A stretch of 64,000 nucleotides of DNA from Bacillota bacterium (lineage in GTDB: Bacteria; Bacillota; Limnochordia; Darwinibacteriales; JAAYFS01), in assembly GCA_012728115.1 (NCBI GenBank), contig JAAYFS010000014.1, positions 2,279 to 66,278 on the forward strand. The letters run 5' to 3'. The notes under the pieces are model-generated. The model worked only from the letters and a program-made list of their open reading frames with translations, did no database searches and was not told the origin of the DNA. Position 1 is the first letter of the stretch, and every line of letters starts with the position of its first letter. A program made the position numbers and the translations under genes. This document shows positions 817-49,505 of the stretch, one piece after another.

Positions 817-823
817 ACCATTG

Positions 824-3443: not shown

Positions 3444-3683
3444 GATTAGATCATACGATTACGGTCTGGTATCCGCCAAAGTGAGCATGACTCAAGTTTT
3501 CATATTTTAAGTCAAAATATTTGAGTTTTGAATTAAAAATTGCAACTCAAACATAGAGGAATGGACTTCTCTAGCGAAAACAAGAAGCCTTATTAAAGTG
3601 GAATGTAGCTATTAACGAGATACGAAGACCTTGGTTGAACAACGTGTTGAAGCTGATGATGGATGAAAATCAGAGGTGAACAT

Positions 3684-4331: not shown

Positions 4332-4403
4332 TGACCTGATATACTAAAATTGTAACACCTTGGTATAAAGATTTGCTATACTTATATCAAGGAGCGATGA
4401 ATT

Positions 4404-4691
4404 ATGTCAGCAAAGCCATATGAATCAGAACTAAAGGAAAAGATTTTGCGCCTTCATCTTGAAGAAGGTCGTACACAAAAAAGTTTGACTGAAGAATATG
4501 GTCTCGGTCAAGGAACGATCTCATATTGGTTAAAACAACGCCGCAAAGAATGCCAAACTAATCCCCAATTAAAAGAACAACTAGATATGTATGAGGAAAA
4601 TAAGAGATTACGCAGTGAATTAGCAGAAAAAGAAAAGGAGATTGCATTCCTAAAAAAAGCAGCGGCATTCTTTGCGAAGGAAATCGAGTAG
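4404..4691 (+). CDS. IS3 transposase OrfA (HTH)
   Basis: YESELKEKILRL...EYGLGQGTISYW HTH; ends FLKKAAAFFAKEIE. Confidence 0.92.
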   Translation: MSAKPYESELKEKILRLHLEEGRTQKSLTEEYGLGQGTISYWLKQRRKECQTNPQLKEQLDMYEENKRLRSELAEKEKEIAFLKKAAAFFAKEIE

Positions 4692-5542: not shown

Positions 5543-5586
5543 TACTATCAACAGGTGTTACAATTTTGCTTGACCACGTCATGTCT

Positions 5587-6888
5587 CTAACTAATTACTG
5601 TTTCGATCTGACTCTTGTTTTCAACAATAAACTTCAGCATTTGACGATTCTTTTCGGCAAGTTCCCTATAGTTATCATGGCTTCCGAAATATGCAATGCA
5701 GATCATCTGAATGGAACAGATTACATAAAATACTGCCTGCTTTTCTTCTTGCGTTAACCTTCCCTCAGAGTCATAGCCAGTGAGAATACCTTCGAGTATC
5801 TCCAACCATTTTTCGTATGCTTCATCATTGCTTTCGGACAAAATTCCAGTTGCGCAGTAACAGACGTCCCACAACCTAACATTGACTTCGCTTAAGTCGA
5901 AATCAATGAAACCGCTAACTTTGCCGTCAACAAAAAGGATATTGCTTGGATTGGGATCGCGATGAATCAGCTGTTTGGGCAATTTATCGTAGAGTTTTCC
6001 AAACACCTCGATATAGTTGGTAAAGAAACTCTCATCAAGCCCTATGTTCCACTGAATATTTTGGCGCTTAACATTAGGCAGTGCCCAGTCCGTAACATTT
6101 TGGTAAAGATCTACTTCATCGGGAAGAATATCAGCTTGGATAGTCTTAAGAGCTTTGTGGAGTTTTGCTATGCTTTGACCGTACTGCTTGGCAAATTCAA
6201 TCCGAGTAGTGCCGAAAATGTCCGATTTGGCAAGAGGTTCACCCTCAATGCCTTGAGTAAGGATGAAAATATCGTTTCCTTCCAAAGACTTTTCTCCATT
6301 CTTGGTGGGAACTGGTAGTGAAGCATTAAAGCCCTGTGCGTGCAATGCGCTGGATATTTTGATATCTTTAAGCAGTCTTTCTCGACTACCTGTCTTCAGG
6401 AAGAAGTCGTCACCGACTTTCCAAACATTTCCCGATACCTTTGCGCCATTCGTGAGATAGATGTCGCTGATGGGAAGATTCTGCTCTATATCCCAGTTTG
6501 CTAAGATCGTACGTAACTTTCGTTCCGTATACATATTTACCACCTCTGGTTTTGTTGGTTTGTGTTCTCGATAGAGTTTTAAATATTTACGCGGGGAGCA
6601 GCCGTACATTTTGACAAATGCCTTGTAGAACCCAGAGTAAGTAGCAAAGCCATATTCAAGTACTACGTCGATCGCTTTTCGTCCGCTGGCGATTTCTGCA
6701 AGCGCATGATCAAGGCGTCGTTTGAGAATGTAGTTTGCGATTGAAGAACCCATAACAGCTGAGAATAAGCGGTAAAAGTGGTAGGTTGAGTAGTTGCCCA
6801 TCCGAGCCAACTCTTCGGCTGTTATATTTGTTTTCAGGTTCTGCTCGATATATTCCAGTGACGATTTGATCACTTTCGAGTACTGCAT
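5587..6888 (-). CDS. AraC-family HTH fused to an APH/type II homoserine kinase-like phosphotransferase
   Basis: GGAGG RBS + ATG 6888; AraC double HTH (EYIEQNL...YHFYRLF...YGCSPRKY); kinase motifs LIHRDPNPSNIL and FIDFD. Confidence 0.85.
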   Translation of the reverse strand: MQYSKVIKSSLEYIEQNLKTNITAEELARMGNYSTYHFYRLFSAVMGSSIANYILKRRLDHALAEIASGRKAIDVVLEYGFATYSGFYKAFVKMYGCSPRKYLKLYREHKPTKPEVVNMYTERKLRTILANWDIEQNLPISDIYLTNGAKVSGNVWKVGDDFFLKTGSRERLLKDIKISSALHAQGFNASLPVPTKNGEKSLEGNDIFILTQGIEGEPLAKSDIFGTTRIEFAKQYGQSIAKLHKALKTIQADILPDEVDLYQNVTDWALPNVKRQNIQWNIGLDESFFTNYIEVFGKLYDKLPKQLIHRDPNPSNILFVDGKVSGFIDFDLSEVNVRLWDVCYCATGILSESNDEAYEKWLEILEGILTGYDSEGRLTQEEKQAVFYVICSIQMICIAYFGSHDNYRELAEKNRQMLKFIVENKSQIETVIS

Positions 6889-7213
6889 GGCGTCCCTCCT
6901 CCCATATGGTGGTTTCAGTATACACCGAATCCGATATGAAAACATTTCCTTTATTGCTATCATACTAAAGCTGGTGGGGCAAATAAAGCTACAAGTGCTT
7001 ATACTTATGGCTATTCTAAATTCAAAGTTGATTGTGATTACGATATGAGTTCAAGTGATATAGAAAAAAGTCGTGGAAACGGAGCGTGGTAGTATAGAAG
7101 GAATAGGCTTAGAACATTAATGTTCAAAATGCGGTAAGAAGAGTGTTAGGGTAAGGCCTATCCGTTTAAGAATTAGGCAAAAGTAGGATTTAAAATTAAT
7201 CAAAAAATTCCTA

Positions 7214-7242
7214 TTGACAATTCTGAGGAACGTGGGTAGAAT
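7214..7242 (+). promoter_or_regulatory. sigmaA promoter of the trp operon
   Basis: TTGACA-17 bp-TAGAAT. Confidence 0.85.
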
Positions 7243-7269
7243 ATTAGCAATAACATAGAACAAATACTA

Positions 7270-7530
7270 AATTCGATGACAGGAGAGAGTAGGTAAGCTA
7301 CGAAGGTAAAGCGAATCAGGGGTGGTGTGAGCCTGGTCTGGAGTACTTATTGAATGGTTCCTGGAGAAGCACTGCGAAATCATTATTGAGAGTAGCTTTA
7401 AGCCGGATTTCCCACGTTATAGGGATAGGGTATGATGGTACCCGAAAAAGGGAGATAGTGTATCACTATCTAAGATTAGGTGGCAACGCGGAAGATAACT
7501 TTCGTCCTAAGAAGGACGAAAGTTTTTTGT
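7270..7530 (+). ncRNA. Trp T-box riboswitch (complete)
   Basis: AGGAGAGAGTA 5' strand; GAA-TGG Trp specifier at 7355-7357; T-box AGGTGGCAACGCG 7478-7490; terminator AACTTTCGTCC/GGACGAAAGTT + T run. Confidence 0.9.
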
Positions 7531-7544
7531 TTTCTTAGCCATTT

Positions 7545-7632
7545 CTTAGTAGTGATTCAGTACTATCTCATTAGAGTGGCACCGCGGAATGTAAGCATTT
7601 CGTCTCTAGTTTGGAGACGAAATGCTTTTTTT
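7545..7632 (+). ncRNA. Second, partial T-box (antiterminator/terminator without Stem I)
   Basis: AGAGTGGCACCGCG 7573-7586; terminator AAGCATTTCGTCTC/GAGACGAAATGCTT + T run; only about 45 nt from terminator 1. Confidence 0.8.
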
Positions 7633-7660
7633 ATTATCAAAAACGAAAGGAGTTGGCGAG

Positions 7661-9145
7661 TTGATTTATCCGAGTATCGATCAGTTTATTGAATTAAGTC
7701 GAAATGCGAAGTTAGTACCTGTTGCTTTAGAAATGGATGGCGATTTGGAAACCCCGATCAGCTTGTTCATCAAGCTTGGGCAAAACAAAAACAGCTATAT
7801 CTTAGAAAGCGTGGAGGGTGGCCAGCATTGGGCTCGCTACTCCTACATCGGTCGCAATCCATTTCTAATTATTAAAGCAAGTGATAATGTAGTAAGCGTT
7901 TTAAATACCGAAACCAACACGATTACAAACAGACATGGAGATGTTCTAGAGATCATTAAAGAGATTATGCAGGAGTATAGGATTGCTAAACTAGCAAATC
8001 TACCAGATTTTTTTGGTGGGGCGGTCGGGTACTTTGCTTATGATGTAGTTCGAAACTATGAAAAACTAAAAAACTCAAAAGTCGATAATCTCAACATGCC
8101 TGATATCCATTTGCTTCTTACAAATGAAGTTATCGTATATGACCATGTTAAACAAAAAATCATTTTAATTGTTAATGTTCCACCTTCATGTACTCCGAAA
8201 GCCAGTTACCAAAAAGCGATCGAGAGGCTGCAAGAAATCAAAGCTGAGATCTTAACTGCTAAAGACGATGTTCAACGATCAAAAATTGCACCCAGGGACG
8301 GTGAGGTCGCTTGGAGTGCTAGTACAGAGAGTAAGGATAGCTTTATGCAAAAGGTAAGGCAGATTAAATCGCACATTGAAAATGGGGAAGCTTTGCAAGT
8401 TGTTTTATCACAACGACTTTCCTTGCAAACAGAAATAGACCCATTCAATGCTTACCGTGTTCTTCGCTCACTCAATCCTTCACCATACCTTTTTTTCATC
8501 AACTATGGTGAATATCAACTAGTTGGGGCATCTCCTGAATTATTGGTAAAAGTGACAGATGGATTAGTTGAAACATGTCCGATTGCAGGTACTCGTCCTC
8601 GTGGTAAGGATCCTAGTGAGGATCAAGCCTATGTTGAAGATTTGTTGAGTGACGAGAAAGAGTTGGCGGAACATTTGATGCTAGTAGATTTGGGACGAAA
8701 TGATATCGGTAAAGTTTCTGAATTTGGAACGGTTGAAACTAAGAACTTGATGCATGTAGAAAAGTATTCGCATGTGATGCACATCGTCACTAATGTAGTT
8801 GGCAAGCTAAAGAATGGAGCTACAATGTATGATGCTCTGAAGGCGTGCTTGCCTGCCGGTACAGTTTCTGGAGCGCCCAAGGTTCGGGCGATGGAAATTA
8901 TTAACGAATTAGAGACCGAAAAGCGTGGCGTCTATGCGGGTGCAGTGGGTTATCTTGGTTTCAACGGAAACATGGATCTTTGTATCACCATTCGCACCAT
9001 AGTGTTTAAAGAAAAAACAGCGTTTGTTCAAACTGGCGCTGGGATAGTCGCCGATTCCGATCCTGAAACCGAGTATGAAGAAACCTTACGGAAAGCAAGA
9101 GCCCTATTAGAAGCCGTTAGGCAAGCGGAGGAGGAACTGTCATGA
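7661..9145 (+). CDS. trpE: Anthranilate synthase component I
   Basis: AAGGAG RBS + TTG 7661; LESVEGG, LNPSPY, GASPE, PIAGTRPRG, EHLMLVDLGRND, PAGTVSGAPK. Confidence 0.95.
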   Translation: MIYPSIDQFIELSRNAKLVPVALEMDGDLETPISLFIKLGQNKNSYILESVEGGQHWARYSYIGRNPFLIIKASDNVVSVLNTETNTITNRHGDVLEIIKEIMQEYRIAKLANLPDFFGGAVGYFAYDVVRNYEKLKNSKVDNLNMPDIHLLLTNEVIVYDHVKQKIILIVNVPPSCTPKASYQKAIERLQEIKAEILTAKDDVQRSKIAPRDGEVAWSASTESKDSFMQKVRQIKSHIENGEALQVVLSQRLSLQTEIDPFNAYRVLRSLNPSPYLFFINYGEYQLVGASPELLVKVTDGLVETCPIAGTRPRGKDPSEDQAYVEDLLSDEKELAEHLMLVDLGRNDIGKVSEFGTVETKNLMHVEKYSHVMHIVTNVVGKLKNGATMYDALKACLPAGTVSGAPKVRAMEIINELETEKRGVYAGAVGYLGFNGNMDLCITIRTIVFKEKTAFVQTGAGIVADSDPETEYEETLRKARALLEAVRQAEEELS

Positions 9146-9735
9146 TCGTTATTATCGATAACTATGATTCATTTACGTACAATCTTTATCAATACTTTGG
9201 CGAGCTTGATCCGAATATTGCTGTTTTTCGTAACGATGAGATCACGATTCAGGAGTTAGAAAAATTGCCACTTAGCCATATCGTACTATCTTCTGGAGCG
9301 GGGTCGCCAGAAAACGCTGGTGTTTCTAGCCAGGTGGTAGCTACTTTTGCGGGTAAAGTTCCGATTCTAGGAATCGGTCTTGGCCACTTAGTAATTGCAA
9401 AACATTATGGAGCTCAAATAGTTCCCGCAAAAAGAATAGCGCATGGCAAAAGCATGAGCTTTAAGCACCAAGGAGAGCAGATCTTTCATGGGGTTAAGAA
9501 CCCACTAAAAGTTACCTGTTATCATTCGTTGATTGTTGAACCAGAATCGATTCCAGACGAGTTGAAGGTTCTGGCAATAAATAATGAAGCGGAAATAATG
9601 GCGATTCGTCATCAACAAGACTTGGTTTTTGGTCTTCAGTTTCATCCCGAAGCAATCGCGACGGAATGTGGTAAACAAGTATTACACAATTTCCTAAACC
9701 AAGAATTATTGGGAGGTGGAAGCTGTGTTGCCTGA
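9142..9735 (+). CDS. trpG: Anthranilate synthase component II (class I GATase fold), catalytic Cys absent
   Basis: IDNYDSFTYNL, YHSL and QFHPE motifs; nucleophile elbow reads GIGLGHL rather than GxCLGHQ. Confidence 0.92.
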   Translation: MIVIIDNYDSFTYNLYQYFGELDPNIAVFRNDEITIQELEKLPLSHIVLSSGAGSPENAGVSSQVVATFAGKVPILGIGLGHLVIAKHYGAQIVPAKRIAHGKSMSFKHQGEQIFHGVKNPLKVTCYHSLIVEPESIPDELKVLAINNEAEIMAIRHQQDLVFGLQFHPEAIATECGKQVLHNFLNQELLGGGSCVA

Positions 9736-24162: not shown

Positions 24163-25818
24163 ATGTCAATCGATTATTCAATGTTTTGTTTTCAGTGCCA
24201 AGAGGCTGCCAAAGGAACAGGATGTACAGTTAGAGGTATATGCGGCAAAACAAGTGATGTCGCCAACTTGCAAGACCTATTAATCTATGTATTAAAAGGA
24301 ATCTCGATCGTTAATGTACACGCTCGGAAGCTAGGTTTGAACGAAGAAAGTACTGATAAATTTGTGATGGAAGGCTTATTCAGTACAATTACCAATGCCA
24401 ACTTTAAGCGCGAAGACTTTGTTAACCTAATTACCGAAGGGCTCCAAATTCGTGATAAGATTAAAGCTTCTCTTGAGGGTAAAATTGAAGATAGAGCCTT
24501 TGGTCTGGATGCAGTAACCTGGAATGGTTCAGAGGAAGAGTATGAAGTGAAAGCTACTTCGATCGGAATTTTATCGATTGAAGATGAAGATATTCGTTCA
24601 CTGCGGGAACTATTGGTCTATGGTCTAAAAGGTATGGCTGCTTACGCTAAACATGCTTATCAATTAGGCTATAAGAATGAAGATATCTTTGATTTTATGG
24701 AAAAAACTCTAGCAGCAACCCTCGATAATCAATTAAATACGCTAGAATTAATGGGATTGGTTGTGGAGACTGGAAGATATGGTGTTGAGGTAATGGCATT
24801 ACTGGATACCGCTAATACTTCTACCTATGGTAATCCAGAAATTACTCAAGTTAATATTGGTGTGAGGAATAATCCCGCTATTTTAATCAGCGGTCATGAC
24901 TTAAAGGATATGGAAGAACTGTTGCAACAGACGGAGGGTACTGGAGTAGATGTTTATACCCATGGAGAAATGCTTCCAGCAAACTACTATCCAGCATTTA
25001 AAAAATATGAGCATTTCGTTGGTAACTATGGTAATGCTTGGTGGCAACAAGATAAAGAGTTTGAAGCTTTTAATGGTCCTATCTTAATGACTACAAACTG
25101 TATCACTCCGCCAAAGGATTCGTATAAAGACCGAATCTATACAACTGGAGTAACAGGTTTTGATGGTGTGAAGCATATTGCTGAGCCTGAAGTAGGCGAA
25201 GCGAAAGATTTTTCGGCAATCATTGAGCATGCAAAAAGATGTGCTCCGCCAACCGAACTAGAAAACGGTACCATCGTCGGTGGATTTGCCCATAATACAG
25301 TTATTGGACTTGCTGACCAAATCGTTGAAGCAGTTAAAAGTGGTGCGATCAAACGCTTCTTTGTTATGGCAGGTTGCGATGGTAGAATGAAGAGTAGGGA
25401 TTACTACACTGAATTTGCCAAAGCTTTGCCACAAGATACCGTCATTCTGACAGCAGGCTGCGCAAAGTATAGATACAATAAACTTGAACTTGGAGATATC
25501 AATGGTATTCCTAGAGTACTAGATGCAGGACAATGTAATGACTCATACTCATTAGCGGTAATCGCTCTAAAATTAAAGGAGATTTTTGAACTAAATGATA
25601 TTAATGAACTTCCAATTTCGTACAACATCGCTTGGTATGAACAAAAGGCTGTGATTGTGTTACTCGCACTTCTCTATCTAGGTGTGAAGAACATTCACTT
25701 AGGACCTACATTACCAGCATTCCTTTCGCCAAACGTAGTGAAAGTCTTGGTTGAGACTTTCCGCATCGGCGGAATAACTAATGTTGAAGACGATCTTAAG
25801 ATGTTCATGGGCAATTAA
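24163..25818 (+). CDS. hcp: Hybrid cluster protein (hydroxylamine/NO reductase)
   Basis: [50 protein letters not shown]-like AWYEQKA. Confidence 0.97.
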
Positions 25819-34260: not shown

Positions 34261-35505
34261 TTAGATCCAACCTCTTAAACTTAAAGCGGTTGAGATTCTT
34301 TCTAATGCAAGCATGTAAGCTCCGATCCGGAGATTCGTTTGATGTTTTTCACTAATTTCCCAAATATGTTTAAAGGCGTCAATGATCTGGATCTTTAGTT
34401 TTTCATTCACTTCTTCTAAACTCCAGTAATAGTTCATCAGGTTTTGGACCCATTCATAATAAGACACTATTACCCCACCAGAGTTTGCGAGAATATCAGG
34501 AATTACTGGGATACCCTTTTTTGCTAGGATTGAATCTGCATCGGGGGTAGTCGGTCCATTTGCTGCTTCAGCAACAATCTTCGCTTTGATAAATTCTGCA
34601 TTTTCCTTGGTTATTTGGTTTTCAAGAGCCGCTGGAATTAGGATGTCGCACTTGATAGCTAGTAAGTCTCCATTAGAAATCGGAATAGTACCTGGGAAAT
34701 TTCCTACCGAAGATGTTAATTCTTTGTGCTTTAATAAACTATGGATATTTAGTCCACTAGGATTGTAGACTCCACCAGTTGAGTCATTAACCGCTATAAT
34801 TTTTACTCCGAGCGATGAAAGAAGGGAGGCAGTATTGGCTCCTACATTTCCAAAACCTTGGATTACGGCAGTAGCTTCTTGTAAGTTAATATTTTTTCTT
34901 TTCGCAGCTTCGATAATTGTATAAACGCAACCTTGAGCGGTAGCGGTTTCGCGTCCAAGTGAACCCCCGATCGCAAGGGGCTTTCCAGTAATAACTCCTG
35001 GTGAGTTCACCTCACCTTGGATTTTATAATATTCATCCATCATCCAGGCCATTACCTGGCTATTTGTATACACATCAGGAGCAGGGATATCTTTTTTCTC
35101 CCCGATAAACTGAGAAATAGCGCGGATATAACCCCTGCTTAAACGTTCAATTTCACTAGGAGACATCTGCTTTGGATTACAGATTACCGCTCCCTTAGCA
35201 CCCCCATACGGCAATCCCACTACAGCACATTTTAGAGTCATCCAAATCGAGAGAGCCATTGTCTCATCCAATGTTACCTGCGGATGGAAGCGGATTCCTC
35301 CCTTTGTAGGACCGAGAACATCGGTGTGTTGTGCTCGAAAGCCTATAAATGTCTTGGTCTGTCCATTATCCATTATAACTGGAATAGATACAGTCAATAC
35401 TCGTTTAGGATAATGGAGGATTTCATACACATCGGGTGGCAGTCCTAGTTTGTCACAGGCTTCTTTCAAATTCTGCTGAGCGATAGCGAGGGGGTTAGTT
35501 TGCAT
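34261..35505 (-). CDS. gdhA: Glu/Leu/Phe/Val dehydrogenase, glutamate dehydrogenase
   Basis: GPTKGGIRFH, LPYGGAKG, DIPAPDV, ITGKP, GSLGR, QGFGNVG, AEAANGP, PDILAN. Confidence 0.9.
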   Translation of the reverse strand: MQTNPLAIAQQNLKEACDKLGLPPDVYEILHYPKRVLTVSIPVIMDNGQTKTFIGFRAQHTDVLGPTKGGIRFHPQVTLDETMALSIWMTLKCAVVGLPYGGAKGAVICNPKQMSPSEIERLSRGYIRAISQFIGEKKDIPAPDVYTNSQVMAWMMDEYYKIQGEVNSPGVITGKPLAIGGSLGRETATAQGCVYTIIEAAKRKNINLQEATAVIQGFGNVGANTASLLSSLGVKIIAVNDSTGGVYNPSGLNIHSLLKHKELTSSVGNFPGTIPISNGDLLAIKCDILIPAALENQITKENAEFIKAKIVAEAANGPTTPDADSILAKKGIPVIPDILANSGGVIVSYYEWVQNLMNYYWSLEEVNEKLKIQIIDAFKHIWEISEKHQTNLRIGAYMLALERISTALSLRGWI

Positions 35506-41123: not shown

Positions 41124-41287
41124 AGAAAAGTCCAGAGAGGCTTTCTGTAAAAACGTTTTAGAGATTGTCAAAAAAATGAACGGGCCTTTAATTCAATCCT
41201 GTGAGATTGGGAAGGACGTCTACACAAGGGCATGCCTTTTCGTGTGCAATTAGTAGGCTTCTACCAATCGAGGTAGAAGCCTTTTAT
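41124..41287 (+). promoter_or_regulatory. PyrR-type attenuator leader
   Basis: AGTCCAGAGAGGCT (41129-41142), second box CTTTAATTCAATCCTGTGAGATTGGGAAGG (about 41186-41215), terminator AGGCTTCTACC/GGTAGAAGCCT + T (41255-41287). Confidence 0.85.
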
Positions 41288-41342
41288 AAAATGATTGCCC
41301 TTGGAGACAGTTTCTTGGAAGGTCCCTATCGGAGGGATTCTG

Positions 41343-42251
41343 ATGTATTCATTAACAACAACAAAGATGTGTTCAAAGAGTTTTATTGAAACGTTGCTAC
41401 AACGGGCACAGCTTTTTGCCGATGGTAAAGAGCCATGGAAGTGTAACGGAACGGTAGTCAACGTTTTTTTTGAACCTAGTACTAGAACAAACCTTTCCTT
41501 TCAAATGGCTGCTCATCGTCTTGGTCTGCATGTTTTAAACTTTGATTGCACCAATTCAAGTCTCAAAAAAGGGGAGTCTATGCTCGATACTTTGCAAACA
41601 ATTGAAGCATTGGGAGCAAATATTGCTGTAATCCGAAGTTCTGAAGATTGGCCAGCTATGGAACTTGATAAAAAAGTGAACATCTCGTTAGTTAACGCTG
41701 GTTCAGGTGTTAAGGATCATCCAACTCAGGCACTATTGGATGCTTTAACAATCAAACAACACTTTGGTTACTTCCAAGGATTAACGGTGACGATTGTGGG
41801 AGACATTCTCCATAGCAGAGTGGCTCGCTCCAATATAGATGTTTTGACAAAATTGGGTGCAAAAATTCAGTTAGCGGGTCCAGAACATTACAAAGCTGAC
41901 GATTTGGCTACTTTTGTACCTTGGGTTGATTTTGATGAGGCAATTGAAGAATCCGATGTGGTGATGATGCTACGTGTTCAACATGAGCGTCATTCAGAAA
42001 AATTCCCGTATGAAATTGGCGAGTATCATCAAAAATTTGGTTTAACCCAAGAGCGAGTAAGAAGAATGAAACCAAATGCGATTATGATGCATCCTGGTCC
42101 AGTTAATCGGGGTGTGGAAATCGCTGACGAAGTTCTAGAAGACGGTCGTTGTAAAATATTACAACAGGTTCGAAATGGAGTTGCTGTGCGGATGGCAGTA
42201 TTAGAAGTATGTTTATTGGGGGAGCGCTATGGGCACCTTGTTTCTGCGTAA
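41343..42251 (+). CDS. pyrB: Aspartate carbamoyltransferase catalytic subunit
   Basis: FFEPSTRT, KGESMLDT, HPTQALLD, GDILHSRVARS, HPGP; GGAGGG RBS + ATG 41343. Confidence 0.96.
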   Translation: MYSLTTTKMCSKSFIETLLQRAQLFADGKEPWKCNGTVVNVFFEPSTRTNLSFQMAAHRLGLHVLNFDCTNSSLKKGESMLDTLQTIEALGANIAVIRSSEDWPAMELDKKVNISLVNAGSGVKDHPTQALLDALTIKQHFGYFQGLTVTIVGDILHSRVARSNIDVLTKLGAKIQLAGPEHYKADDLATFVPWVDFDEAIEESDVVMMLRVQHERHSEKFPYEIGEYHQKFGLTQERVRRMKPNAIMMHPGPVNRGVEIADEVLEDGRCKILQQVRNGVAVRMAVLEVCLLGERYGHLVSA

Positions 42252-43506
42252 TGGATCTGTTTTTCGAAATGGACGGATCAGAAAAGAAGATATATTGATC
42301 AACGACGGAATTATTGTTGCTTTTAATGATGACGCTAGGCACAGACTAAGCAATGAGAAAGAAGTGAAAATTCTAGATTTAGATGGCCTATTAGTTTCGC
42401 ATGGTTTTATCGATCTCCATGTTCATCTGCGGGAGCCTGGTGGCGAGAGCAAGGAGACTATTTTAACGGGTACTAAAGCGGCAGCAAGAGGCGGTTTTAC
42501 TTCGGTTTTTGCCATGCCAAATACCACACCTAGCTTTGATTCGGTTGAGGTAATCCAAGATTTCTTTAGTAGATGTGCTAAGGACGCAGCCGTTAAGGTT
42601 CACCCGATTGCAAGCCTCAGCATGGGTCGCAAAGGTAAGCAAGTGGTTGATTATCAAGCATTAAAAGAACTTGGGATAAATCATTTTTCTGATGATGGGG
42701 ATCCGTTATCGGATGAGATTATCAAAGAAGCAATGGATTTACTAAAAAGTACGGGTGGCGTGTTAATTAACCATCTTGAAGATAAGAGCATAACACAAGG
42801 TGGAATGTTTGCAGATCGGATTCCCGCTGAAAGCGAATATTTAATGCTCGAGCGAGATTTGAAGATGGTTTCGGAAACAGGGTGTGCGTATCATGCAGCA
42901 CACCTTAGTTGTATCGAATCTGTTGAGCTGATTAAAAAAGCTAAGCAAAAGGGTTTGCCAGTAACTGCGGAAGTTACCCCGCATCATTTAGTATTAACTA
43001 TCGATGATATTGGTTTCCCCAAAGGAAACTTCCAGATGAAACCGCCATTAAGAACCAAGAATGATCAAGTAGCTTTAATAAATGGCCTTAAAACGGGAGT
43101 AATCGATGCGATCGCGACCGACCATGCTCCTCATGGCGAAGAGAAGAAAAAGGAGTTTTCTAGTAACTCCCCCTTTGGGATAACGGGATTGGAAACTGCT
43201 TTTCCAATTCTTTATACGAAATTGGTACTATCAGGAAAACTGACCTTAGTTCAGTTGCTGGAGAGTTTAACTGACAAACCAGCTCAAATAGGCCGAATAA
43301 ATGGGGAATTGAAGGTAGGAGAACCTGCGGATCTTGTAGTGATAGACTTGAAATCTGAAAGAACGGTTAAAGAAGAAGATTTCCTTAGTAAGGGTAAGAA
43401 CTCACCCTTCATTGGTTTAACATTGACGGGTTGGCCCTTGCTAACTTTGGTAAATGGCGAGGTGAAGTATGATGAAGGTGTTGATACTCGGATCTGGTCC
43501 AATTGA
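42229..43506 (+). CDS. pyrC: Dihydroorotase (class I)
   Basis: DLHVHLREPG, AMPNT, FSDDG, AEVTPHH, KPPLR, ATDHAPH. Confidence 0.95.
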   Translation: MGTLFLRNGSVFRNGRIRKEDILINDGIIVAFNDDARHRLSNEKEVKILDLDGLLVSHGFIDLHVHLREPGGESKETILTGTKAAARGGFTSVFAMPNTTPSFDSVEVIQDFFSRCAKDAAVKVHPIASLSMGRKGKQVVDYQALKELGINHFSDDGDPLSDEIIKEAMDLLKSTGGVLINHLEDKSITQGGMFADRIPAESEYLMLERDLKMVSETGCAYHAAHLSCIESVELIKKAKQKGLPVTAEVTPHHLVLTIDDIGFPKGNFQMKPPLRTKNDQVALINGLKTGVIDAIATDHAPHGEEKKKEFSSNSPFGITGLETAFPILYTKLVLSGKLTLVQLLESLTDKPAQIGRINGELKVGEPADLVVIDLKSERTVKEEDFLSKGKNSPFIGLTLTGWPLLTLVNGEVKYDEGVDTRIWSN

Positions 43507-46500
43507 AATAGGGCAAGCGGCAGAATTTGATTATGCGGGAACACAAGCTTGTCAAGCCTTGCTGGAAGAGGGTGTGGAAGTAGTTTTATTAAACAGTAAT
43601 CCAGCGACGATTATGACGGACCCGAAAATGGCTGGAAGGGTATATATTGAACCGCTGACCATCGATGTGGTGAGAAAGATCATTCGCCTAGAAAAACCCG
43701 ATGGCATCTTAGCTACAACAGGTGGGCAAACAGGCTTGAACCTTGCCCGTGAGTTAGCTGAGGCTGGTGTGTTAGAACAAGAAGGTGTAAAGATTCTAGG
43801 TACTGATATAACAGCGATTCAGCGTGGAGAAGACCGCAGTGAGTTTCGTAAGTTAATGCAGGAACTAGGCCAACCGATTCCCGAAAGCACGATCGTTACC
43901 AAAGTAGAAGAGGCGATTGCTTTTGCTGAAAACATTGGCTTTCCTGTGGTAGTTCGCCCAGCTTTTACTCTTGGCGGCTCAGGTGGAGGTGTAGTTGAGA
44001 ATATCGATGAGTTAAAGGAACGGGTAAGGATCGGTTTGCAATTAAGCCCGATCAAACAAGTCCTTCTTGAACAGAGTATCGCTGGAATGCGCGAGGTTGA
44101 ATACGAAGTATTACGTGATAGTGAAGGTAATACCTTGATAGTTTGTGAGATGGAGAATATCGATCCTGTAGGAGTTCATACAGGGGATAGCATAGTGGTT
44201 GCACCAGCATTAACTTTAAGCAACCAAGAAAAGCAGCTTTTGGAACTAGCAGCACTGAAAATTGTTGAATCCTTGAATGTTGTTGGAAGTTGTAATGTGC
44301 AATTTGCCCTCGGCCGCAATTTAGATTACTACGTGATTGAAGTTAACCCGCGCGTCAGCCGTTCTTCAGCTTTAGCGTCAAAAGCAACGGGATATCCGAT
44401 CGCCAGAGTCGCAGCTAAGATTGCGATCGGGAAAACTTTGATTGAGCAAGATGCATTTAAGAGACCAAATTTAGATTATGTGGTCACTAAGATTCCGCGC
44501 TGGCCATTTGACAAATTCCCAACCGCTAATCGTTTACTAGGTACTCAAATGAAGGCAACGGGTGAAGTAATGGCGATTGGGCGAACCTTTACCGAATCAT
44601 TACAAAAAGCGATCCGTTCCTTGGAACTGGATAATATTTCTTTACTTCATCCCGAAGCACGCTTTTTAAGTGAAGAAGAACTTATTAAACGTCTCATTAG
44701 ACCTGATGATATGCGGATTCATTTGCTTGCTGAATTCTTGCGGCGGGGTGGAAGTGTAGAAGAACTCGTAAACCTTACCAACATTCATCCATTTTTTCTC
44801 CATGAGATCGATCGCTTAGTAAAGTTTTTTTTAGAGCTTTGTTCCCAAGAAGAACTAAATCGTGATCTACTAAGAGAAGCGAAAAGATTGGGCTTTAGTG
44901 ATGAGATCATCGGTGAAGCCGTGGGGTTAGAAGTGAAAACAATAAGAGATTTCCGAGTCAAATGGGGAATTAGACCAAGTTTTTGTAAGGTTGATGCGGG
45001 TATATTGCCTTATTACTACTCAACTTACAATAAAGAGAATGAAGTTGTATTAGATCGAAGCAAACAAACGGTGATAGTGTTAGGAAGTGGTCCTATTAGG
45101 ATCGGACAAGGAATTGAATTCGATTTTTCCACTGTTCATGCTGCTTGGACTATTAGGGACAAAGGTTATGCCGCGGTGATAATTAACAACAACCCTGAAA
45201 CAGTGTCTACTGATTACTTCACATCCGATCGTTTATATTTCGAACCTTTAGTTGAGGAAGACGTTTGGGAAGTTATCCAATTTGAAAACCCAGAGGGTGT
45301 ACTTGTTCAATTTGGTGGACAAACAGCAATTAACCTGGTACGTTTTCTAGAAAATGAACAAATTGCAATCAAGGGAACTACCGCTGAGAATACTTTCGGT
45401 ATGGAAGATCGGAAACGTTTTGATAAAGCGATGGAAACGCTTGAAATTCCGCGCCCAGCAGGATATACAGCAGATACTATCGATGAAGCTTTTAAAATTG
45501 CCGAAAAGATCAACTATCCAGTTGTTGTGCGACCTTCCTTTGTACTTGGGGGAAGGGGAATGGAAGTTGTCGGAAATCAAGCGAGTTTAAGAGAATACTT
45601 AACTGGGCTGAGGATTACACAAGAGGCACCACTTTTAATCGATAGTTATATTGCTGGGCTTGAGGTGGAGCTTGATGCAATTAGTGATGGAGAAGATGTG
45701 TTTATCCCTGGCGTGATGGAACATTTAGAGCGTGCAGGGGTTCATTCAGGTGACTCCATTGCGGTATTTCCTAGCCAGAACCTATCAGCGGATACTTTAG
45801 CTTTGATTGCGGACTATACCAAGCGCATCGCAAACTATTTTCAAGTGAAAGGATTCTTAAATATCCAATTCGTTATCGCTAACAATACTGTATATGTGCT
45901 GGAAGTTAATCCACGGTCATCACGTACTATTCCATTTTTGAGCAAAGTTACAGGAATTTCATTAGCCGAACTAGCAACTAGAGTGGTTTTAGGCGAAAAA
46001 TTGTCAGAACTAGGTTATGTTGGACTTAGACAATTTACTGACGAGATTATTTCAGTGAAGGTACCTGTCTTTTCTTTTGCCAAACTACTGGATACGGAGA
46101 TCAACCTTGGACCAGAAATGAAGTCTACTGGTGAAGTAATGGGACGAGCTAAGAATCTTGCTCAAGCTTTGTATAAAGGTTTTATCGCAGCCAAAGTTCC
46201 AGTCAATTACCATGGGAAAGCATTAGTTACTGTAGCTGATAAAGACAAAGCAGAGATCGTTGAGTTGGCAAGAGCTCTTGATCGCCAAGGTTTTGATATT
46301 TATGCTACCGAAGGAACGTGTAAAACGCTTCAAGCAGCTGGAATTACCTGTAAGCAGGTTGTTAAATTGCAGGAAGGGTCAACTATCTTAGATTTAATCC
46401 AACAAGGGGAAGTGAATTTGGTGATCAACACCATCACGCATGGTAAGCAACCGCAACGTGATGGATTTAAAATTCGAAGAGCAGCTGTTGAAAGTGGGGT

Positions 46501-46597
46501 TTTATGTTTTACATCCTTGGATACAGCCAGAGCGTACTTAGATGTTGTTGCTGACCGAGATTTATGGTTAGAACCGATTGTTTCTGAGAGGAGATAA
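43469..46597 (+). CDS. carB: Carbamoyl-phosphate synthase large subunit
   Basis: GSGPIEIGQAAEFDY, two ATP-grasp units (RPAFTLGG, GVHTGDS, EVNPRVSRSS; RPSFVLGG, GVHSGDS, EVNPRSSRT), C-terminal MGS-like domain. Confidence 0.96.
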   Translation: MMKVLILGSGPIEIGQAAEFDYAGTQACQALLEEGVEVVLLNSNPATIMTDPKMAGRVYIEPLTIDVVRKIIRLEKPDGILATTGGQTGLNLARELAEAGVLEQEGVKILGTDITAIQRGEDRSEFRKLMQELGQPIPESTIVTKVEEAIAFAENIGFPVVVRPAFTLGGSGGGVVENIDELKERVRIGLQLSPIKQVLLEQSIAGMREVEYEVLRDSEGNTLIVCEMENIDPVGVHTGDSIVVAPALTLSNQEKQLLELAALKIVESLNVVGSCNVQFALGRNLDYYVIEVNPRVSRSSALASKATGYPIARVAAKIAIGKTLIEQDAFKRPNLDYVVTKIPRWPFDKFPTANRLLGTQMKATGEVMAIGRTFTESLQKAIRSLELDNISLLHPEARFLSEEELIKRLIRPDDMRIHLLAEFLRRGGSVEELVNLTNIHPFFLHEIDRLVKFFLELCSQEELNRDLLREAKRLGFSDEIIGEAVGLEVKTIRDFRVKWGIRPSFCKVDAGILPYYYSTYNKENEVVLDRSKQTVIVLGSGPIRIGQGIEFDFSTVHAAWTIRDKGYAAVIINNNPETVSTDYFTSDRLYFEPLVEEDVWEVIQFENPEGVLVQFGGQTAINLVRFLENEQIAIKGTTAENTFGMEDRKRFDKAMETLEIPRPAGYTADTIDEAFKIAEKINYPVVVRPSFVLGGRGMEVVGNQASLREYLTGLRITQEAPLLIDSYIAGLEVELDAISDGEDVFIPGVMEHLERAGVHSGDSIAVFPSQNLSADTLALIADYTKRIANYFQVKGFLNIQFVIANNTVYVLEVNPRSSRTIPFLSKVTGISLAELATRVVLGEKLSELGYVGLRQFTDEIISVKVPVFSFAKLLDTEINLGPEMKSTGEVMGRAKNLAQALYKGFIAAKVPVNYHGKALVTVADKDKAEIVELARALDRQGFDIYATEGTCKTLQAAGITCKQVVKLQEGSTILDLIQQGEVNLVINTITHGKQPQRDGFKIRRAAVESGVLCFTSLDTARAYLDVVADRDLWLEPIVSERR

Positions 46598-46600: not shown

Positions 46601-47344
46601 ATGCTTTTGCATGTGTCAGAGAATAAAGAAGTAGCTAAGGGAATCTGGGAAATGCACTTAAGCGGTGATTTTCCTTTTGAAAATGTGCAGCCAGGGCAAT
46701 TTATCCATATCCTTATTGGTTCGGGACGGGAACATGTGCTTCGAAGGCCGATCAGTATCGCTGCGATCGAGGCTGAGAAAGAGACGTTAGTAATCGTTTT
46801 TAGGGTAGTTGGAGAAGGAACGGATTGGCTAGCTAAGAGAGTAGAAGGAGATGTACTAGACGTTTTAGGACCATTAGGAACTGGGTTTCCGCTTACTACC
46901 AAGCAAAAGATTCTAATTGTGGGTGGTGGAATAGGAGTTCCACCTCTTTATGAGTTAATTAAAAGGCTATGGCAACAGGGAAATGAAATTTATTGCTTAC
47001 TTGGATTTAGAAATAGTGACGATGTTTTTTGGGTAGAAAAATTTAAGGAGTATGGCACTGTAACTACTTACACCGATGATGGTTCGTTTGGTGAAAAAGG
47101 TCTGGTTACACAAAGAATTGCGGAAGACTTTTTAGAAAAAAACTGGAGCAATGTTTATGCCTGTGGACCAGTTCCGATGTTAAAAGAACTGAAAGGCATC
47201 GTAGCTAATTTTAGTGTCGAGGGTTATTTCTCTTTAGAAGAAAGAATGGCCTGTGGTGTCGGAGCTTGTTATGGATGTGTATGTAATAATCAGCGGGTTT
47301 GTGTCGAAGGTCCTGTGTTTCCAATGCGGGAGGTGGTTTTATAA
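46601..47344 (+). CDS. pyrK: Dihydroorotate dehydrogenase electron transfer subunit
   Basis: PGQF, LRRPISI, GPLG, GGGIG, ACGP, EERMACGVGACYGC. Confidence 0.95.
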   Translation: MLLHVSENKEVAKGIWEMHLSGDFPFENVQPGQFIHILIGSGREHVLRRPISIAAIEAEKETLVIVFRVVGEGTDWLAKRVEGDVLDVLGPLGTGFPLTTKQKILIVGGGIGVPPLYELIKRLWQQGNEIYCLLGFRNSDDVFWVEKFKEYGTVTTYTDDGSFGEKGLVTQRIAEDFLEKNWSNVYACGPVPMLKELKGIVANFSVEGYFSLEERMACGVGACYGCVCNNQRVCVEGPVFPMREVVL

Positions 47345-48252
47345 TGCAAGTAGATTTTGCAGGCATAAAGTTAAAAAATCCTGTGATGCCCGCTTCAGGT
47401 TGTTTTGGTTATGGAAAAGAGTATGCAAAATACTATGATTTAAGTGAGTTAGGTGCCATAATCGTCAAAGCAACTACCGTTAGCCCACGCCTTGGCAATC
47501 CCACCCCAAGAGTAGCAGAAGTTTGTGCTGGAATGCTTAACTCGATCGGTTTGGCCAATCCTGGAGTTGATCAGGTGGTAAAAAAGGAACTACCTTGGCT
47601 TAGACAATTCGAACTACCAATCATAGTTAATGTGGCTGGAGATACAGTTGAGGATTATTGCTTTGTCACCGAAAAGCTTTGTCAATCTGGCTTGGTGGAT
47701 GCCATCGAGCTTAATGTTTCTTGTCCAAATGTAGAACAGGGTGGCATGGCATTTGGCGTAGATGCAGGTGTTCTTGCTGAGTTAACGACCGCGGTAAAAA
47801 AGGTTTGTAGTGTTCCTTTAATCGTTAAGCTATCGCCGAATGTATCTGATATCGTTCAGATTGCTCAAGCTGCCGAGGCTGCTGGGGCAGATGCTCTGAG
47901 TTTAATAAACACCTTGGTGGGGATGAAGATAGATCTTATGTCTCGGAAGCCCATTTTAGCTCGTGGTGTAGGTGGGTTATCTGGACCTGCGATTAAGTCG
48001 GTGGCTGTAAGAATGGTGTACCAGGTATACAAGGCAGTAAAGATCCCGATCTTGGGTGTTGGTGGGATCACCACTGGTTTAGATGCGATTGAATTTATTA
48101 TGGCAGGCGCTACTGCTGTTTCAGTGGGAACAGCAAACTTTACGGATCCATATGCCTGTCCTCGAATTATTAAAGAAATTAAAGCCTACATGGAAAAGGA
48201 AGGAATTAAAGACCTTAGTGAGATCAGGGGGTGTGCACATGTACTCAGCTAA
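47344..48252 (+). CDS. pyrD: Dihydroorotate dehydrogenase class 1B
   Basis: ASGCFG, GNPTPR, MLNSIGLANPG, NVSCPN, KLSPN, INT, GGLSGPA. Confidence 0.96.
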   Translation: MQVDFAGIKLKNPVMPASGCFGYGKEYAKYYDLSELGAIIVKATTVSPRLGNPTPRVAEVCAGMLNSIGLANPGVDQVVKKELPWLRQFELPIIVNVAGDTVEDYCFVTEKLCQSGLVDAIELNVSCPNVEQGGMAFGVDAGVLAELTTAVKKVCSVPLIVKLSPNVSDIVQIAQAAEAAGADALSLINTLVGMKIDLMSRKPILARGVGGLSGPAIKSVAVRMVYQVYKAVKIPILGVGGITTGLDAIEFIMAGATAVSVGTANFTDPYACPRIIKEIKAYMEKEGIKDLSEIRGCAHVLS

Positions 48253-48949
48253 TGAACGAGTAATTCTTGCACTTGATGTTTCATCGAAGCAGGAAGCGTT
48301 GAAGGTAGTGAAAGGGTTATTACCAGAGTTAAGATTTGTGAAGGTCGGGATGGAGTTATTTTTTTCCGTGGGACCTGATCTTATTCATCACTTGAAAGAC
48401 CTTGGCTTAAAGATTTTTATCGACTTAAAGGTTCATGATATTCCTAATACCGCCTATAATGCGGTTCGAAGTCTAAATGGATTGGGGTGCGATATCATCA
48501 ATGTCCATTGTGCTGGTGGATTAACGATGATGAAAAGAGCAAGAGAAGCTATTTCAGAAGATACCAAGTTGATTGGGGTAACTCAATTAACTAGTACTGA
48601 CCAATCGATGTTGAATACGGAGCTTGGAATTGCGGGTTCTGTTACCGATAGTGTGCTTAACCTTGCTCGATTAGCAAAGGAAGCAGGGTTACATGGAGTA
48701 GTCTGTTCGCCACAGGAGGTTGAGCTTTTAAAGGCTGAACTTGGAAAAGAGTTCTTAGCAGTCACTCCTGGAGTAAGACCATTAGGTGAGGATACTCAAG
48801 ATCAGAAACGAGTGATGACGCCAAAGAAAGCGATTCAAGCAGGAAGTGATTATTTAGTTATCGGAAGACCTATCTTAAAGAGCGATAATCCGCTAAGAGC
48901 ATTTAGGGACATTGTTGCACAGATTCAGGAGGTTGATAGCGGTGAATAA
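48239..48949 (+). CDS. pyrF: Orotidine 5'-phosphate decarboxylase
   Basis: VILALD, VKVG, DLKVHDIPNT, VTQLTS, TPGVR, QKR, VIGR. Confidence 0.96.
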   Translation: MYSANERVILALDVSSKQEALKVVKGLLPELRFVKVGMELFFSVGPDLIHHLKDLGLKIFIDLKVHDIPNTAYNAVRSLNGLGCDIINVHCAGGLTMMKRAREAISEDTKLIGVTQLTSTDQSMLNTELGIAGSVTDSVLNLARLAKEAGLHGVVCSPQEVELLKAELGKEFLAVTPGVRPLGEDTQDQKRVMTPKKAIQAGSDYLVIGRPILKSDNPLRAFRDIVAQIQEVDSGE

Positions 48950-49505
48950 GAATGAGTTATTAGACCTATTTAAAGAGATCGGGGTGTTAAAAACAGGTCA
49001 TTTTCGCTTAACGAGTGGACTACATAGTGAATATTACTTGCAATGTGCGACGATTTTTGAAAATCCGAGAATCGCTGAAAAGATCATTGCTCAATTACAG
49101 CCGATTTTACCCCCAGATGTGACAACAGTTGTAGCACCAGCGATCGGTGGAATAACGATGGGTTATGAAGTTGCTAGATTATTGGGAGCACGCTCGATTT
49201 TTGCTGAGAGACAAGATGGTGTAATGACTCTCCGACGAGGTTTTTCGTTATCTCCTGATGAAAAAGTGTTAGTAGCCGAAGATGTGGTAACTACAGGTGG
49301 TTCGGTGAAGGAAGTATTAGAAATCGTTCGTTTCCATGGTTGCGAGATTGTTGGGGTAACTTCGGTAGTGGATCGTAGTAATGGGAAAGTGGATTTTGGG
49401 GTGCCTTTCTATCCATTAATTAAAATGGAGGTTCAAACCTTTACCCAGGAAGAATGTCCATTATGTGCACAAAATATACCGATTACTAAGCCTGGAAGCA
49501 GGTAA
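48942..49505 (+). CDS. pyrE: Orotate phosphoribosyltransferase
   Basis: GHFRLTSGLHS, AEDVVTTGGS. Confidence 0.95.
   Translation: MNKNELLDLFKEIGVLKTGHFRLTSGLHSEYYLQCATIFENPRIAEKIIAQLQPILPPDVTTVVAPAIGGITMGYEVARLLGARSIFAERQDGVMTLRRGFSLSPDEKVLVAEDVVTTGGSVKEVLEIVRFHGCEIVGVTSVVDRSNGKVDFGVPFYPLIKMEVQTFTQEECPLCAQNIPITKPGSR

Follow-up and report, generated by a model that had tools for sequence, protein, structure and literature searches.

A carbamoyl phosphate synthetase large subunit in a carA-less pyr operon as a candidate stand-alone, ammonia-dependent enzyme

The window analysed here, a stretch of 64,000 nucleotides of DNA from an uncultured anaerobic Firmicute, contains a pyrimidine (pyr) operon which encodes a full-length large subunit of carbamoyl phosphate synthetase (CPS), CarB, and which lacks carA. 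We propose that this CarB is very probably a stand-alone CPS that needs no glutaminase subunit and draws its ammonia straight from the cytoplasm. Given that the genome has no carA and that the CarB segments associated with a CarA partner are lost, the use of free ammonia appears most likely, ammonia dependence being in this case predicted from sequence. The preliminary description of the locus had suggested such an enzyme with an eroded CarA-dependent surface, and both the absence of carA and the carA-associated changes described below argue in its favour.

The pyr operon and the carbamoyl phosphate supply of the genome

The operon consists of the following features (coordinates refer to the window; + denotes the forward strand):

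41181..41289 (+), PyrR-binding attenuator-like leader directly 5' of pyrB (Rfam RF00515)
41295..42251 (+), pyrB, aspartate carbamoyltransferase catalytic subunit (NF002032, 347 bits, cut-off 263)
42229..43506 (+), pyrC, dihydroorotase (TIGR00857, 367 bits, cut-off 279)
43459..43464 (+), carB ribosome-binding site GAGGTG inside pyrC, read directly as gcGAGGTGaagtATGATG
43469..46597 (+), carB, CPS large subunit, full-length, 1042 aa (P0001; TIGR01369, NF003671)
46601..47344 (+), pyrK, dihydroorotate dehydrogenase electron-transfer subunit (assigned from its family matches and its place in the operon)
47299..48252 (+), pyrD, dihydroorotate dehydrogenase B catalytic subunit (NF005574, 454 bits, cut-off 269)
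48083..48949 (+), pyrF, OMP decarboxylase, longest open reading frame (NF001273, 291 bits, cut-off 193)
48912..49505 (+), pyrE, orotate phosphoribosyltransferase (Pfam Pribosyltran)

The order pyrB-pyrC-carB-pyrK-pyrD-pyrF-pyrE without carA, as originally read, is borne out by NCBIfam equivalog matches (Pfam for pyrE). The pyrK matches lie under their cut-offs (best NF000799, 268 bits vs. 314; NF000798, 188 vs. 219), pyrE shares 61-65% identity with the gene that closes this operon in relatives, and the true start of pyrF is probably near 48248, since its family match begins at residue 56. The leader matches RF00515 over the whole model length with 47.9 bits (E=1.7e-5), short of the gathering score of 54, and would probably place operon expression under pyrimidine control. 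As had also been claimed, carB overlaps pyrC (its 5' end covers 38 nt of the pyrC 3' end) and has its own GAGGTG motif, located 4 nt ahead of the ATG. Because of this overlap, carA is certainly not at its usual place in the operon.

A carA elsewhere in the genome would speak against a stand-alone enzyme, as the preliminary description had recognised. In the whole assembly (a 66-contig draft with an estimated completeness of 95.8%), nothing exceeded the cut-off of the carA profile TIGR01368, the best match being TrpG with 62 bits; tblastn of six CarAs matched TrpG and PyrG alone, in each case just the GATase half, with no match to the N-domain, and neither a carA remnant nor a CarA-like open reading frame was found anywhere. 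A search for further carB copies, likewise proposed at the outset, found this one and no second, while the best match to carbamate kinase (TIGR00746) in the genome reached 36.7 bits vs. a cut-off of 358 and is a generic amino-acid-kinase cross-hit. The genome encodes both ATCase, the carbamoyl phosphate consumer specified by pyrB, and an argCJBDF cluster with OTCase; with that cluster present and no carA or carbamate kinase, the lone CarB must supply all carbamoyl phosphate, and is the only possible source of it in this genome.

Among the other glutaminase modules, GuaA has just a stump of its GATase domain left (GuaA proteins of relatives, too, repeatedly have a truncated GATase domain), TrpG has Gly at the catalytic Cys position and the N-terminus of the GlmS homologue reads MSGIIGY. 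Intact class I GATases are otherwise limited to PyrG, which retains GICLGMQ, and a Peptidase_C26-type protein of 234 aa that keeps its Cys (AICRGMQ) and has WHPE. Considering PyrG and the two glnA genes in the genome, glutamine has therefore not been abandoned as a nitrogen donor.

CarB segments altered in the absence of carA

CarB matches TIGR01369 with 1348 bits (cut-off 1027) over residues 2-1025 and NF003671 with 1372 bits (cut-off 599), and it retains both ATP-grasp synthetase sites, the linker domain and the allosteric domain. What we take to be the E. coli catalytic residues of the first site (R129, R169, E215, H243, Q285, E299, N301, R303) and the second site (R715, E761, H788, Q829, E841, N843, R845, R848) are identical in the window CarB, in agreement with the earlier view that the ATP-grasp motifs are intact, and in all 20 members of its clade (see below). 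The inner ammonia-tunnel gate (C232/A251/A314) and other lining residues are also invariant across the clade (20/20). An AlphaFold model (pLDDT 83.9, pTM 0.87) aligned with E. coli CarB (1bxr_A) in Foldseek at TM 0.94/0.92 and rmsd 2.8 Å, and thus predicts that the four-domain fold is kept.

Three segments differ from E. coli CarB in a phmmer alignment to 1bxr_A (Ec denotes E. coli numbering):

44201..44245 (+), helix APALTLSNQEKQLLE, residues 245-259, E. coli 251-265
44429..44479 (+), shortened loop GKTLIEQDAFKRPNLDY, with Ec337-345 deleted, F348 replaced by K and E349 by R
44990..45019 (+), shortened VDAGILPYYY at the end of the oligomerization domain, with C-A-A-E-F (Ec532-536) and T540 deleted

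The nucleotide positions first given for these changes (44201-44245, 44429 and 44990) correspond to residues 245-259, 321 and 508 of the 1042-aa product. The alignment reproduces APALTLSNQEKQLLE in place of APAQTLTDKEYQIMR (Q254L, D258N, Y261K, R265E) and both shortenings: GKTLIEQD..AFKRPNLDY lacks 7 residues pairwise and 9 E. coli columns in the multiple alignment, and VD..AGILPYYY lacks 6 residues pairwise. Of the four helix substitutions, Q254L is real but shared with just one further clade member, and 15/20 of the clade keep Q.

The clade comprises 20 sequences (monophyletic, support 1.0, stem length 0.60 substitutions per site), all from metagenomes and always in carA-less pyr operons. 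The same operon occurs in G011, G018, G021 and G019 as well as on metagenome contigs, with no conserved extra gene beside it in relatives. Searched genome-wide, G018 and G021 lack carA; two clade genomes other than that of the window that are without carA are 97% and 92% complete, while G011 and G019 carry an arginine-type CarAB alongside the lone CarB of the pyr operon. An ancestor with this last arrangement probably gave rise to the present state by losing CarAB altogether. Members are 60-66% identical over their full length, show no frame disruptions and reach family scores of about 1335-1350 bits vs. 1500-1560 for canonical CarBs; their nearest carA-linked relatives, at 58-59% identity, are the PyrAB proteins of Paenibacillus, Brevibacillus and Effusibacillus.

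Among residues invariant in 86 carA-linked CarBs, the substitutions R265E, E349R and G281S and the deletions of Ec337-345 and Ec532-536 are fixed in the clade, meaning that 20/20 members have R265, G281 and E349 switched and C532-F536 and Ec337-345 deleted; V19E is found in 17/20. Specifically, 86/86 carA-linked CarBs have R at position 265 and E at position 349, where 20/20 clade members have E and R, respectively. Within the helix, which is still modelled as such (H252-269), D258, Y261 and Q262 are relaxed. Most changed positions (D258, Q262, F348, K527 and the linker 530-540) vary inside the clade, as expected where constraint has been lost. Switched columns were enriched in the oligomerization domain (11/29 vs. 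25/394, Fisher p=4e-6), and the allosteric domain had none.

We then considered 401 genomes of the phylum, 307 of them carB-positive, and found carA to be absent from 36 of these 307; the carA-less CarBs represent at least 16 independent lineages. The motif D[TS]C[AGS][AGS]E[FYH] at Ec530-536 was present in 86/86 carA-linked and 0/52 carA-less CarBs, and was also missing from clade CarBs whose genomes have an arginine-type carAB. All 86 carA-linked CarBs combine R265, E349 and a D-T-C-A-A-E-F-type motif, a marker derived in this analysis and not an established criterion; the window CarB has E, R and a deletion at these places. The top 21 columns lost together with carA all fall within Ec258-265, 333-349 and 527-552, i.e., the three places flagged in the preliminary description are those most often lost across at least 16 lineages, 86/86 carA-linked CarBs retain them, and the changed residues track CarA. 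As a contig-edge control, the apparently carA-less genome G412, whose carB is cut by a contig end, keeps R265 and DTCAAEF. In another family (f15), carA-like open reading frames lack Cys269 and His353 and the CarBs keep D-T-C-A and E349. Judging by the association with carA and by earlier literature rather than by coordinates, we infer that the changed segments belong to the CarA-CarB interface. A tunnel-wall study by Kim and Raushel in 2004 reportedly included R265, and the small subunit presumably contacts just the first two CarB domains.

Proposed ammonia route and alternative explanations

In the mechanism that we propose, the lost segments would once have formed the CarA docking surface and the outer tunnel wall. 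Their removal would leave the tunnel mouth open to solvent, so that NH3 would enter there, pass the conserved gate and attack carboxyphosphate. The remainder would be canonical (carbamate passing through the tunnel to a second phosphorylation), with allosteric control from the C-terminal domain, and R265E, E349R, G281S and, in most members, V19E may help to stabilise the newly exposed mouth again or give it a new shape. Since E. coli CarB binds ammonia poorly without its partner, activity may need high ammonium.

Alternatively, ammonia may be delivered by a non-orthologous glutaminase, namely the Peptidase_C26-type GATase (C10:84822-85526) or an unrecognised docking protein. That the former has an intact Cys, and that R265E, E349R, G281S and V19E (17/20) are fixed rather than relaxed and could thus mark a new binding surface, lends this scenario some appeal, but we consider it unlikely: the C26 protein is also found in carB-less relatives (G003, G012, G005, G002) and so shows no specific co-occurrence with a lone CarB, its gene is unlinked to the pyr operon, the changed positions mostly vary among clade members, and the operons of relatives share no additional gene that could encode a partner. 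Still less probable is a CarB that has ceased to be a CPS, whether as a decaying relic or through an altered reaction. Such a change could account for the long stem branch and the lowered family scores; however, the checked catalytic and tunnel residues are invariant (20/20), no allosteric-domain column has switched, the model superposes on E. coli CarB, carB sits inside a complete pyr operon in a genome that encodes ATCase and OTCase with no alternative carbamoyl phosphate source, and full-length identity and reading frames are preserved across the clade. A carA hidden in an assembly gap, which would make the enzyme an ordinary CarAB, is scarcely credible even for an incomplete 66-contig draft and with the precedent of G412, as the pyrC/carB overlap bars carA from its usual place, the two other clade genomes (97% and 92% complete) also lack it, and the motif is missing in 20/20 clade CarBs and kept in 86/86 carA-linked ones.

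Relation to known synthetases and implications

Textbooks and reviews present bacterial CPS as glutamine-dependent. We found one published exception, a genetic inference for a single Bacteroides paralogue: Liu et al. 2021 (Cell Rep, PMC8121099) proposed that the lone CarB2 (BT3866) of Bacteroides thetaiotaomicron, which is needed only at high ammonium and in an organism that also keeps a canonical CarAB, is an ammonium-dependent CPS, while stating that all eubacterial CPSs characterised to date were found to be glutamine dependent. Trotta et al. 1971, as cited there, described purified bacterial CarB as an ammonium-dependent CPS in vitro, and the title of Rubino et al. 1987 (listed in PMC6245113) refers to in vivo synthesis by the E. 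coli large subunit with NH3 as substrate. A lone bacterial CarB that depends on ammonium has already been suggested in print (PMC8121099), so that the present case is less singular than had been assumed at the outset.

Like BT3866, the window CarB is full-length, lacks a glutaminase partner and is proposed to use ammonium directly, the evidence being indirect for both. It differs in being the sole CPS of its genome, serving both arginine and pyrimidine synthesis from a PyrR-type pyr operon, and its clade arose separately, from Bacilli-type pyrimidine CarBs according to the tree (BT3866 was compared by description only); it is thus independently derived. A search with a 'PVSG' orphan-type CarB returned matches from Firmicutes only. 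With Bacillus subtilis PyrAA/PyrAB (pyrB-pyrC-pyrAA-pyrAB-pyrK-pyrD-pyrF-pyrE), the window operon shares gene order, a PyrR-type leader and an unchanged allosteric domain, but it lacks pyrAA (carA) and its CarB carries R265E, E349R, G281S and the deletions of Ec337-345 and 532-536. E. coli CarB stripped of CarA can make carbamoyl phosphate from NH3 by itself and matches in fold (TM 0.94), yet it is an artificial half-enzyme with docking segments, whereas the window CarB represents a natural, conserved state without them. Finally, vertebrate CPS I (human CPS1, PDB 5DOU), in which the tunnel gate residues are conserved (PMC4655335), and bacterial dead-CarA CPSs such as f15 are ammonia-dependent through lost glutaminase chemistry; by contrast with the window genome, which has no CarA-like protein, they retain the inactive glutaminase module in a structural role.

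More tentatively, and with rather less than even confidence, these observations can be read jointly to mean that ammonia-only CPS is common in anaerobic Firmicutes, with convergent segment loss, a marker motif and a concerted shedding of glutaminases. If so, about one carB-bearing species in ten would be without CarA, and each independent loss would erase Ec258-265, 333-349 and 527-540, which would therefore define the determinant of CarA docking and coupling. D-T-C-A-A-E-F would then tell glutamine- from ammonia-dependent CPS in any genome, and CarA, the GuaA GATase domain, the TrpG cysteine and GlmS Cys1 would have been shed together in a high-ammonium niche.

The window CarB would thus be a natural CarB-only enzyme that, as the sole CPS, feeds both arginine and pyrimidine synthesis, in a state conserved in its clade. 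The convergent signature could serve to re-annotate many 'glutamine-hydrolysing' CarBs and guide work on how CarA docks on and couples to CarB, and the enzyme itself is a compact candidate for engineering strains in which ammonia drives the pyrimidine and arginine pathways.

The pyr operon and the carbamoyl-phosphate sources of the genome

The preliminary description had proposed a pyr operon in the order pyrB-pyrC-carB-pyrK-pyrD-pyrF-pyrE that lacks carA (encoding CarA, the glutamine-splitting small subunit of carbamoyl-phosphate synthase, CPS), and in which carB (large subunit) overlaps pyrC and has its own GAGGTG ribosome-binding site. ORF listing and NCBIfam scans, by which we identified the operon genes, bore out both points: the operon is tight and on the plus strand, carB starts within pyrC (38-nt overlap), and GAGGTG precedes it at 43459-43464. 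This start inside pyrC leaves no room for carA at the position that pyrAA takes in Bacillus. Upstream of the operon lie a glucose-6-phosphate dehydrogenase gene and then an AraC-type regulator (minus strand).

Features of the pyr operon in the window
41181-41289, just 5' of pyrB: PyrR-binding-site match (47.9 bits, E=1.7e-5; below the Rfam gathering score of 54)
41295-42251, plus: pyrB (ORF listing, NCBIfam)
42229-43506, plus: pyrC (ORF listing, NCBIfam)
43469-46597, plus: carB, 1042 aa (ORF listing, NCBIfam)
ending at 49505, plus: pyrK, pyrD, pyrF, pyrE

Between the trp and pyr operons, the window also carries genes for a hydroxylamine reductase (hybrid-cluster protein; 24163-25818, plus) and a glutamate dehydrogenase (34261-35505, minus).

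We then searched the whole assembly (1.95 Mb, 66 contigs, 95.8% complete) for carA and for further copies of carB. The CarA model TIGR01368 gave nothing over its cut-off, and its top match (62 bits, window positions 9142-9735) was rejected as carA, the gene being trpG of a trpE-trpG operon. Likewise, tblastn with six CarAs (some from the same order) picked up TrpG and PyrG alone, each in its GATase half, with no match to the CarA-specific N-terminal domain. The genome has a single carB, no carbamate kinase was found in it, and it encodes ornithine carbamoyltransferase (OTCase), which leaves the window's CarB as the only apparent supplier of carbamoyl phosphate to two pathways. The OTCase gene lies in the following cluster:

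Contig C48 of the window's own genome (G000), 231-8980, minus: argF-argD-argB-argJ-argC including OTCase, followed by two tandem glutamine synthetase (glnA) genes on the plus strand

Altered and retained residues in the window's CarB clade

Among 41 species genomes in the order, four from two other families carry the same carA-less operon, with CarBs 61-66% identical to that of the window. Two of them (97% and 92% complete) have no carA genome-wide, while the other two have an extra carAB, the copy in G011 adjoining an OTCase-like gene. In a collection of 5.8 billion proteins, the nearest sequences formed about 17 clusters at 60-66% identity (the only organism label found for a clade member being a 'Bacillota bacterium' MAG), and contigs bearing one of these sequences had the same carA-less operon; next came canonical PyrAB of Paenibacillus, Brevibacillus and Effusibacillus (58-59%). 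Phylogenetic analysis of 111 CarBs recovered the 20 clade members as monophyletic (support 1.0, stem of 0.60 substitutions per site), inside Bacilli-type pyrimidine CarBs and beside canonical CarBs from the same order that are carA-linked. These comparisons indicate that the CarB of the carA-less pyr operon is a conserved clade and no accident.

Two other arrangements were seen. In G019 (C294:5653-9929) the carB that comes after carA is spread over two ORFs (model positions 1-411 and 420-1050), reflecting a gene split or a frameshift. In family f4, all but one of 24 genomes sampled had neither carA nor carB and are presumably unable to make carbamoyl phosphate via CPS.

Alignment of the window's CarB with E. 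coli CarB (1bxr_A, whose numbering we use; phmmer E=1e-282) confirmed the substitutions previously read by eye in one helix, as well as two shortened segments (nucleotides 44201-44245, 44429 and 44990, i.e., CarB residues 245-259, 321 and 508). Specifically, the helix reads APALTLSNQEKQLLE against APAQTLTDKEYQIMR in E. coli; after GKTLIE, pairwise alignment shows a gap of 7 residues, which in the multiple alignment spans 9 E. coli columns (337-345); and its VD..AGILPYYY segment lacks 6 residues. A confident AlphaFold model (pLDDT 83.9, pTM 0.87) superposed on E. coli CarB with TM 0.94/0.92. Despite being shortened, the protein is therefore a complete CarB.

To contrast the 20 clade CarBs with carA-linked ones, we used 86 CarBs, each either encoded beside or close to a carA or bearing the name of a canonical PyrAB; among the matches listed, a locus search of genome contigs gave only canonical CarBs, which served as carA-linked controls. 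Both ATP-grasp sites had every catalytic residue invariant in the two sets, as the claim of intact motifs had held, and so were I18, I20, A23, E217, N283, Q285, N301, R306, S307, A311 and M378. The tunnel gate (residues cited in PMC8674909 and PMC4655335) was also kept, with C232 and A314 invariant and A251 nearly so. By contrast, three residues invariant in the carA-linked set were replaced in 20/20 clade members (R265 by E, G281 by S and E349 by R), and two segments whose residues are invariant in the 86 were deleted in all 20: the 337-345 loop, and C532-A-A-E-F536 with T540. D258, Y261, Q262, F348, K527 and D530 were variable in the clade, V19 was E in 17/20, and Q254L occurred only in the window's genome and one other member. 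R265E together with E349R might be a compensating exchange that preserves a salt bridge within the protein. Switched conserved columns were concentrated in the oligomerization domain (38%; 11/29 vs. 25/394 elsewhere, Fisher p=4e-6), compared with 5-8% in the two synthetase domains and 0/23 in the allosteric domain.

Loss of carA across the phylum

Our survey of the phylum covered 401 genomes with a completeness of 90% or more (carA threshold E<=1e-40). A carB was present in 307, and carA was absent from 36 of these 307; when all candidates were re-scored in the 35 other genomes, none had a CarA over the cut-off. Many of the carA-less CarBs sit directly 3' of pyrC. The tree places the carA-less CarBs in at least 16 distinct lineages, which branch from within carA-linked ones. 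At E. coli positions 530-536, the motif D-[TS]-C-[AGS]-[AGS]-E-[FYH] was found in 86/86 carA-linked and 0/52 carA-less CarBs, with R265 kept in 7 and E349 in 15 of the 52. For each of 371 well-conserved columns we counted how many carA-less lineages had independently lost it, and ranked the columns by that count: the top 21 all fell in E. coli 258-265, 333-349 and 527-552 (none in 554-1073), and nearly all were lost in the window's clade. In E. coli CPS, the small subunit is said to contact only the carboxyphosphate and oligomerization domains. Kim and Raushel (2004) reportedly perforated the wall of the E. coli tunnel, to which R265 is said to belong. PMC9140254 cites that study by title. The column pattern appears to fit this structure, both in the small-subunit contacts and in R265.

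A few cases serve as internal controls for this association. Three CarBs without carA within the fetched locus still carry the motif. G412 seemed to lack carA, yet R265 and DTCAAEF are both retained there; with its carB truncated at the edge of a contig, carA has probably just escaped assembly. Other loci retain carA-like remnants:

L175:2896-3912, L176:3010-3930 and L177:4541-5581: carA-like ORFs of family f15, 306-346 aa, between pyrC and carB
L169 (G383:C78), 2991-3491: CarA N-domain-only fragment, 166 aa, directly upstream of carB

The f15 ORFs are without Cys269 and His353, and their CarBs keep D-T-C-A and E349, with Gln replacing E535. Judged by these residues, the ORF is a dead glutaminase, CPS I-like, and f15 an intermediate state. 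In G383, where DTCAAEF has decayed to DSAAGLT and R265 is Ala, carA loss looks recent.

We also observed another set of lone CarBs that branches deeply as a clade of its own, in which PVSGVE replaces DTCAAEF and R265 is Q or E (L128 (G017:C93), L123/L031 (G001:C104), L156-L166, L168, L172). It shows 78-81% identity across Clostridium aceticum and C. formicaceticum, Pelotomaculum, Syntrophomonas, Pseudobacteroides and Desulfoscipio, and canonical carAB is present in some of these genomes and absent from others. This clade may be the Firmicute counterpart of the Bacteroides CarB2; a search with such a 'PVSG' orphan CarB for the B. thetaiotaomicron CarB2 returned Firmicutes only. Separately, CarB ORFs of about 1350 aa with a C-terminal extension of about 290 residues (L072, L074, L077, L078, L086, L094, L098, L106) come from Ruminococcus-, Clostridia- and Christensenellales-type genomes.

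Proposed ammonia dependence, and glutaminase modules

With carA absent genome-wide and the CarA-associated segments eroded, the window's CarB is best explained, with good confidence, as the stand-alone ammonia-dependent CPS that the preliminary description had proposed. A different glutaminase might instead serve CarB, which we consider unlikely. The genome has only four class I GATase-like loci, among which PyrG keeps GICLGMQ and HRHRYE and a Peptidase_C26 protein keeps its Cys; the latter's presence in relatives without any carB led us to reject it as a partner dedicated to CarB. That CPS function has been lost is more improbable still, the catalytic residues being kept, and a carA hidden in an assembly gap is scarcely credible.

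A stand-alone, ammonia-dependent CarB has a proposed precedent in B. thetaiotaomicron, which has CarAB and a lone CarB2 (BT3866). There, carAB insertions have an effect only without added ammonium, carB2 matters when ammonium is present, and carB2 has no co-fit glutaminase (Liu et al. 2021, PMC8121099). The authors put CarB2 forward as an ammonium-dependent CPS, to be confirmed biochemically, eubacterial CPSs until then all being glutamine dependent by their account; as cited in PMC8121099, Trotta et al. (1971) had CarB alone using ammonium (Rubino et al. 1987 is listed in PMC6245113). The window's CarB is thus a variant of a kind already proposed. Unlike CarB2, it is independently derived from a pyr-type CarB, is the cell's only CPS and has visibly eroded CarA-associated segments. 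Neither carA-less pyr operons nor the CarB motif rule turned up in the literature searched, whose incomplete coverage makes this weak evidence of absence.

Glutaminase modules are altered elsewhere in the genome:

Window 9142-9735, plus: TrpG in a trpE-trpG-trpD operon; ORF intact, PILGIGLGHL with Gly replacing the catalytic Cys
G000 C33:2938-4215, minus: GuaA homologue (GMP synthase), about 425 aa
G000 C46, plus, from about 25629: GlmS-like protein, 584 aa, starting MSGIIGY, with Ser at the Ntn nucleophile Cys1 position

The GuaA homologue has a GATase stump of about 100 residues (GIGVDCA where GICYGMQ is expected; no match to Pfam GATase) before intact ATP-pyrophosphatase and C-terminal domains. 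Comparably truncated GuaA homologues occur in three relatives, G002 (479 aa), G005 (433 aa) and G011 (423 aa), and the GuaA GATase is missing altogether from G018, while GuaA is full-length in G017, G004 and G001. Together, the altered GuaA, TrpG and GlmS point to loss of glutaminase modules as a trend of the lineage. Such a trend would fit life amid plentiful ammonia, with glutamine still made and still used by PyrG.
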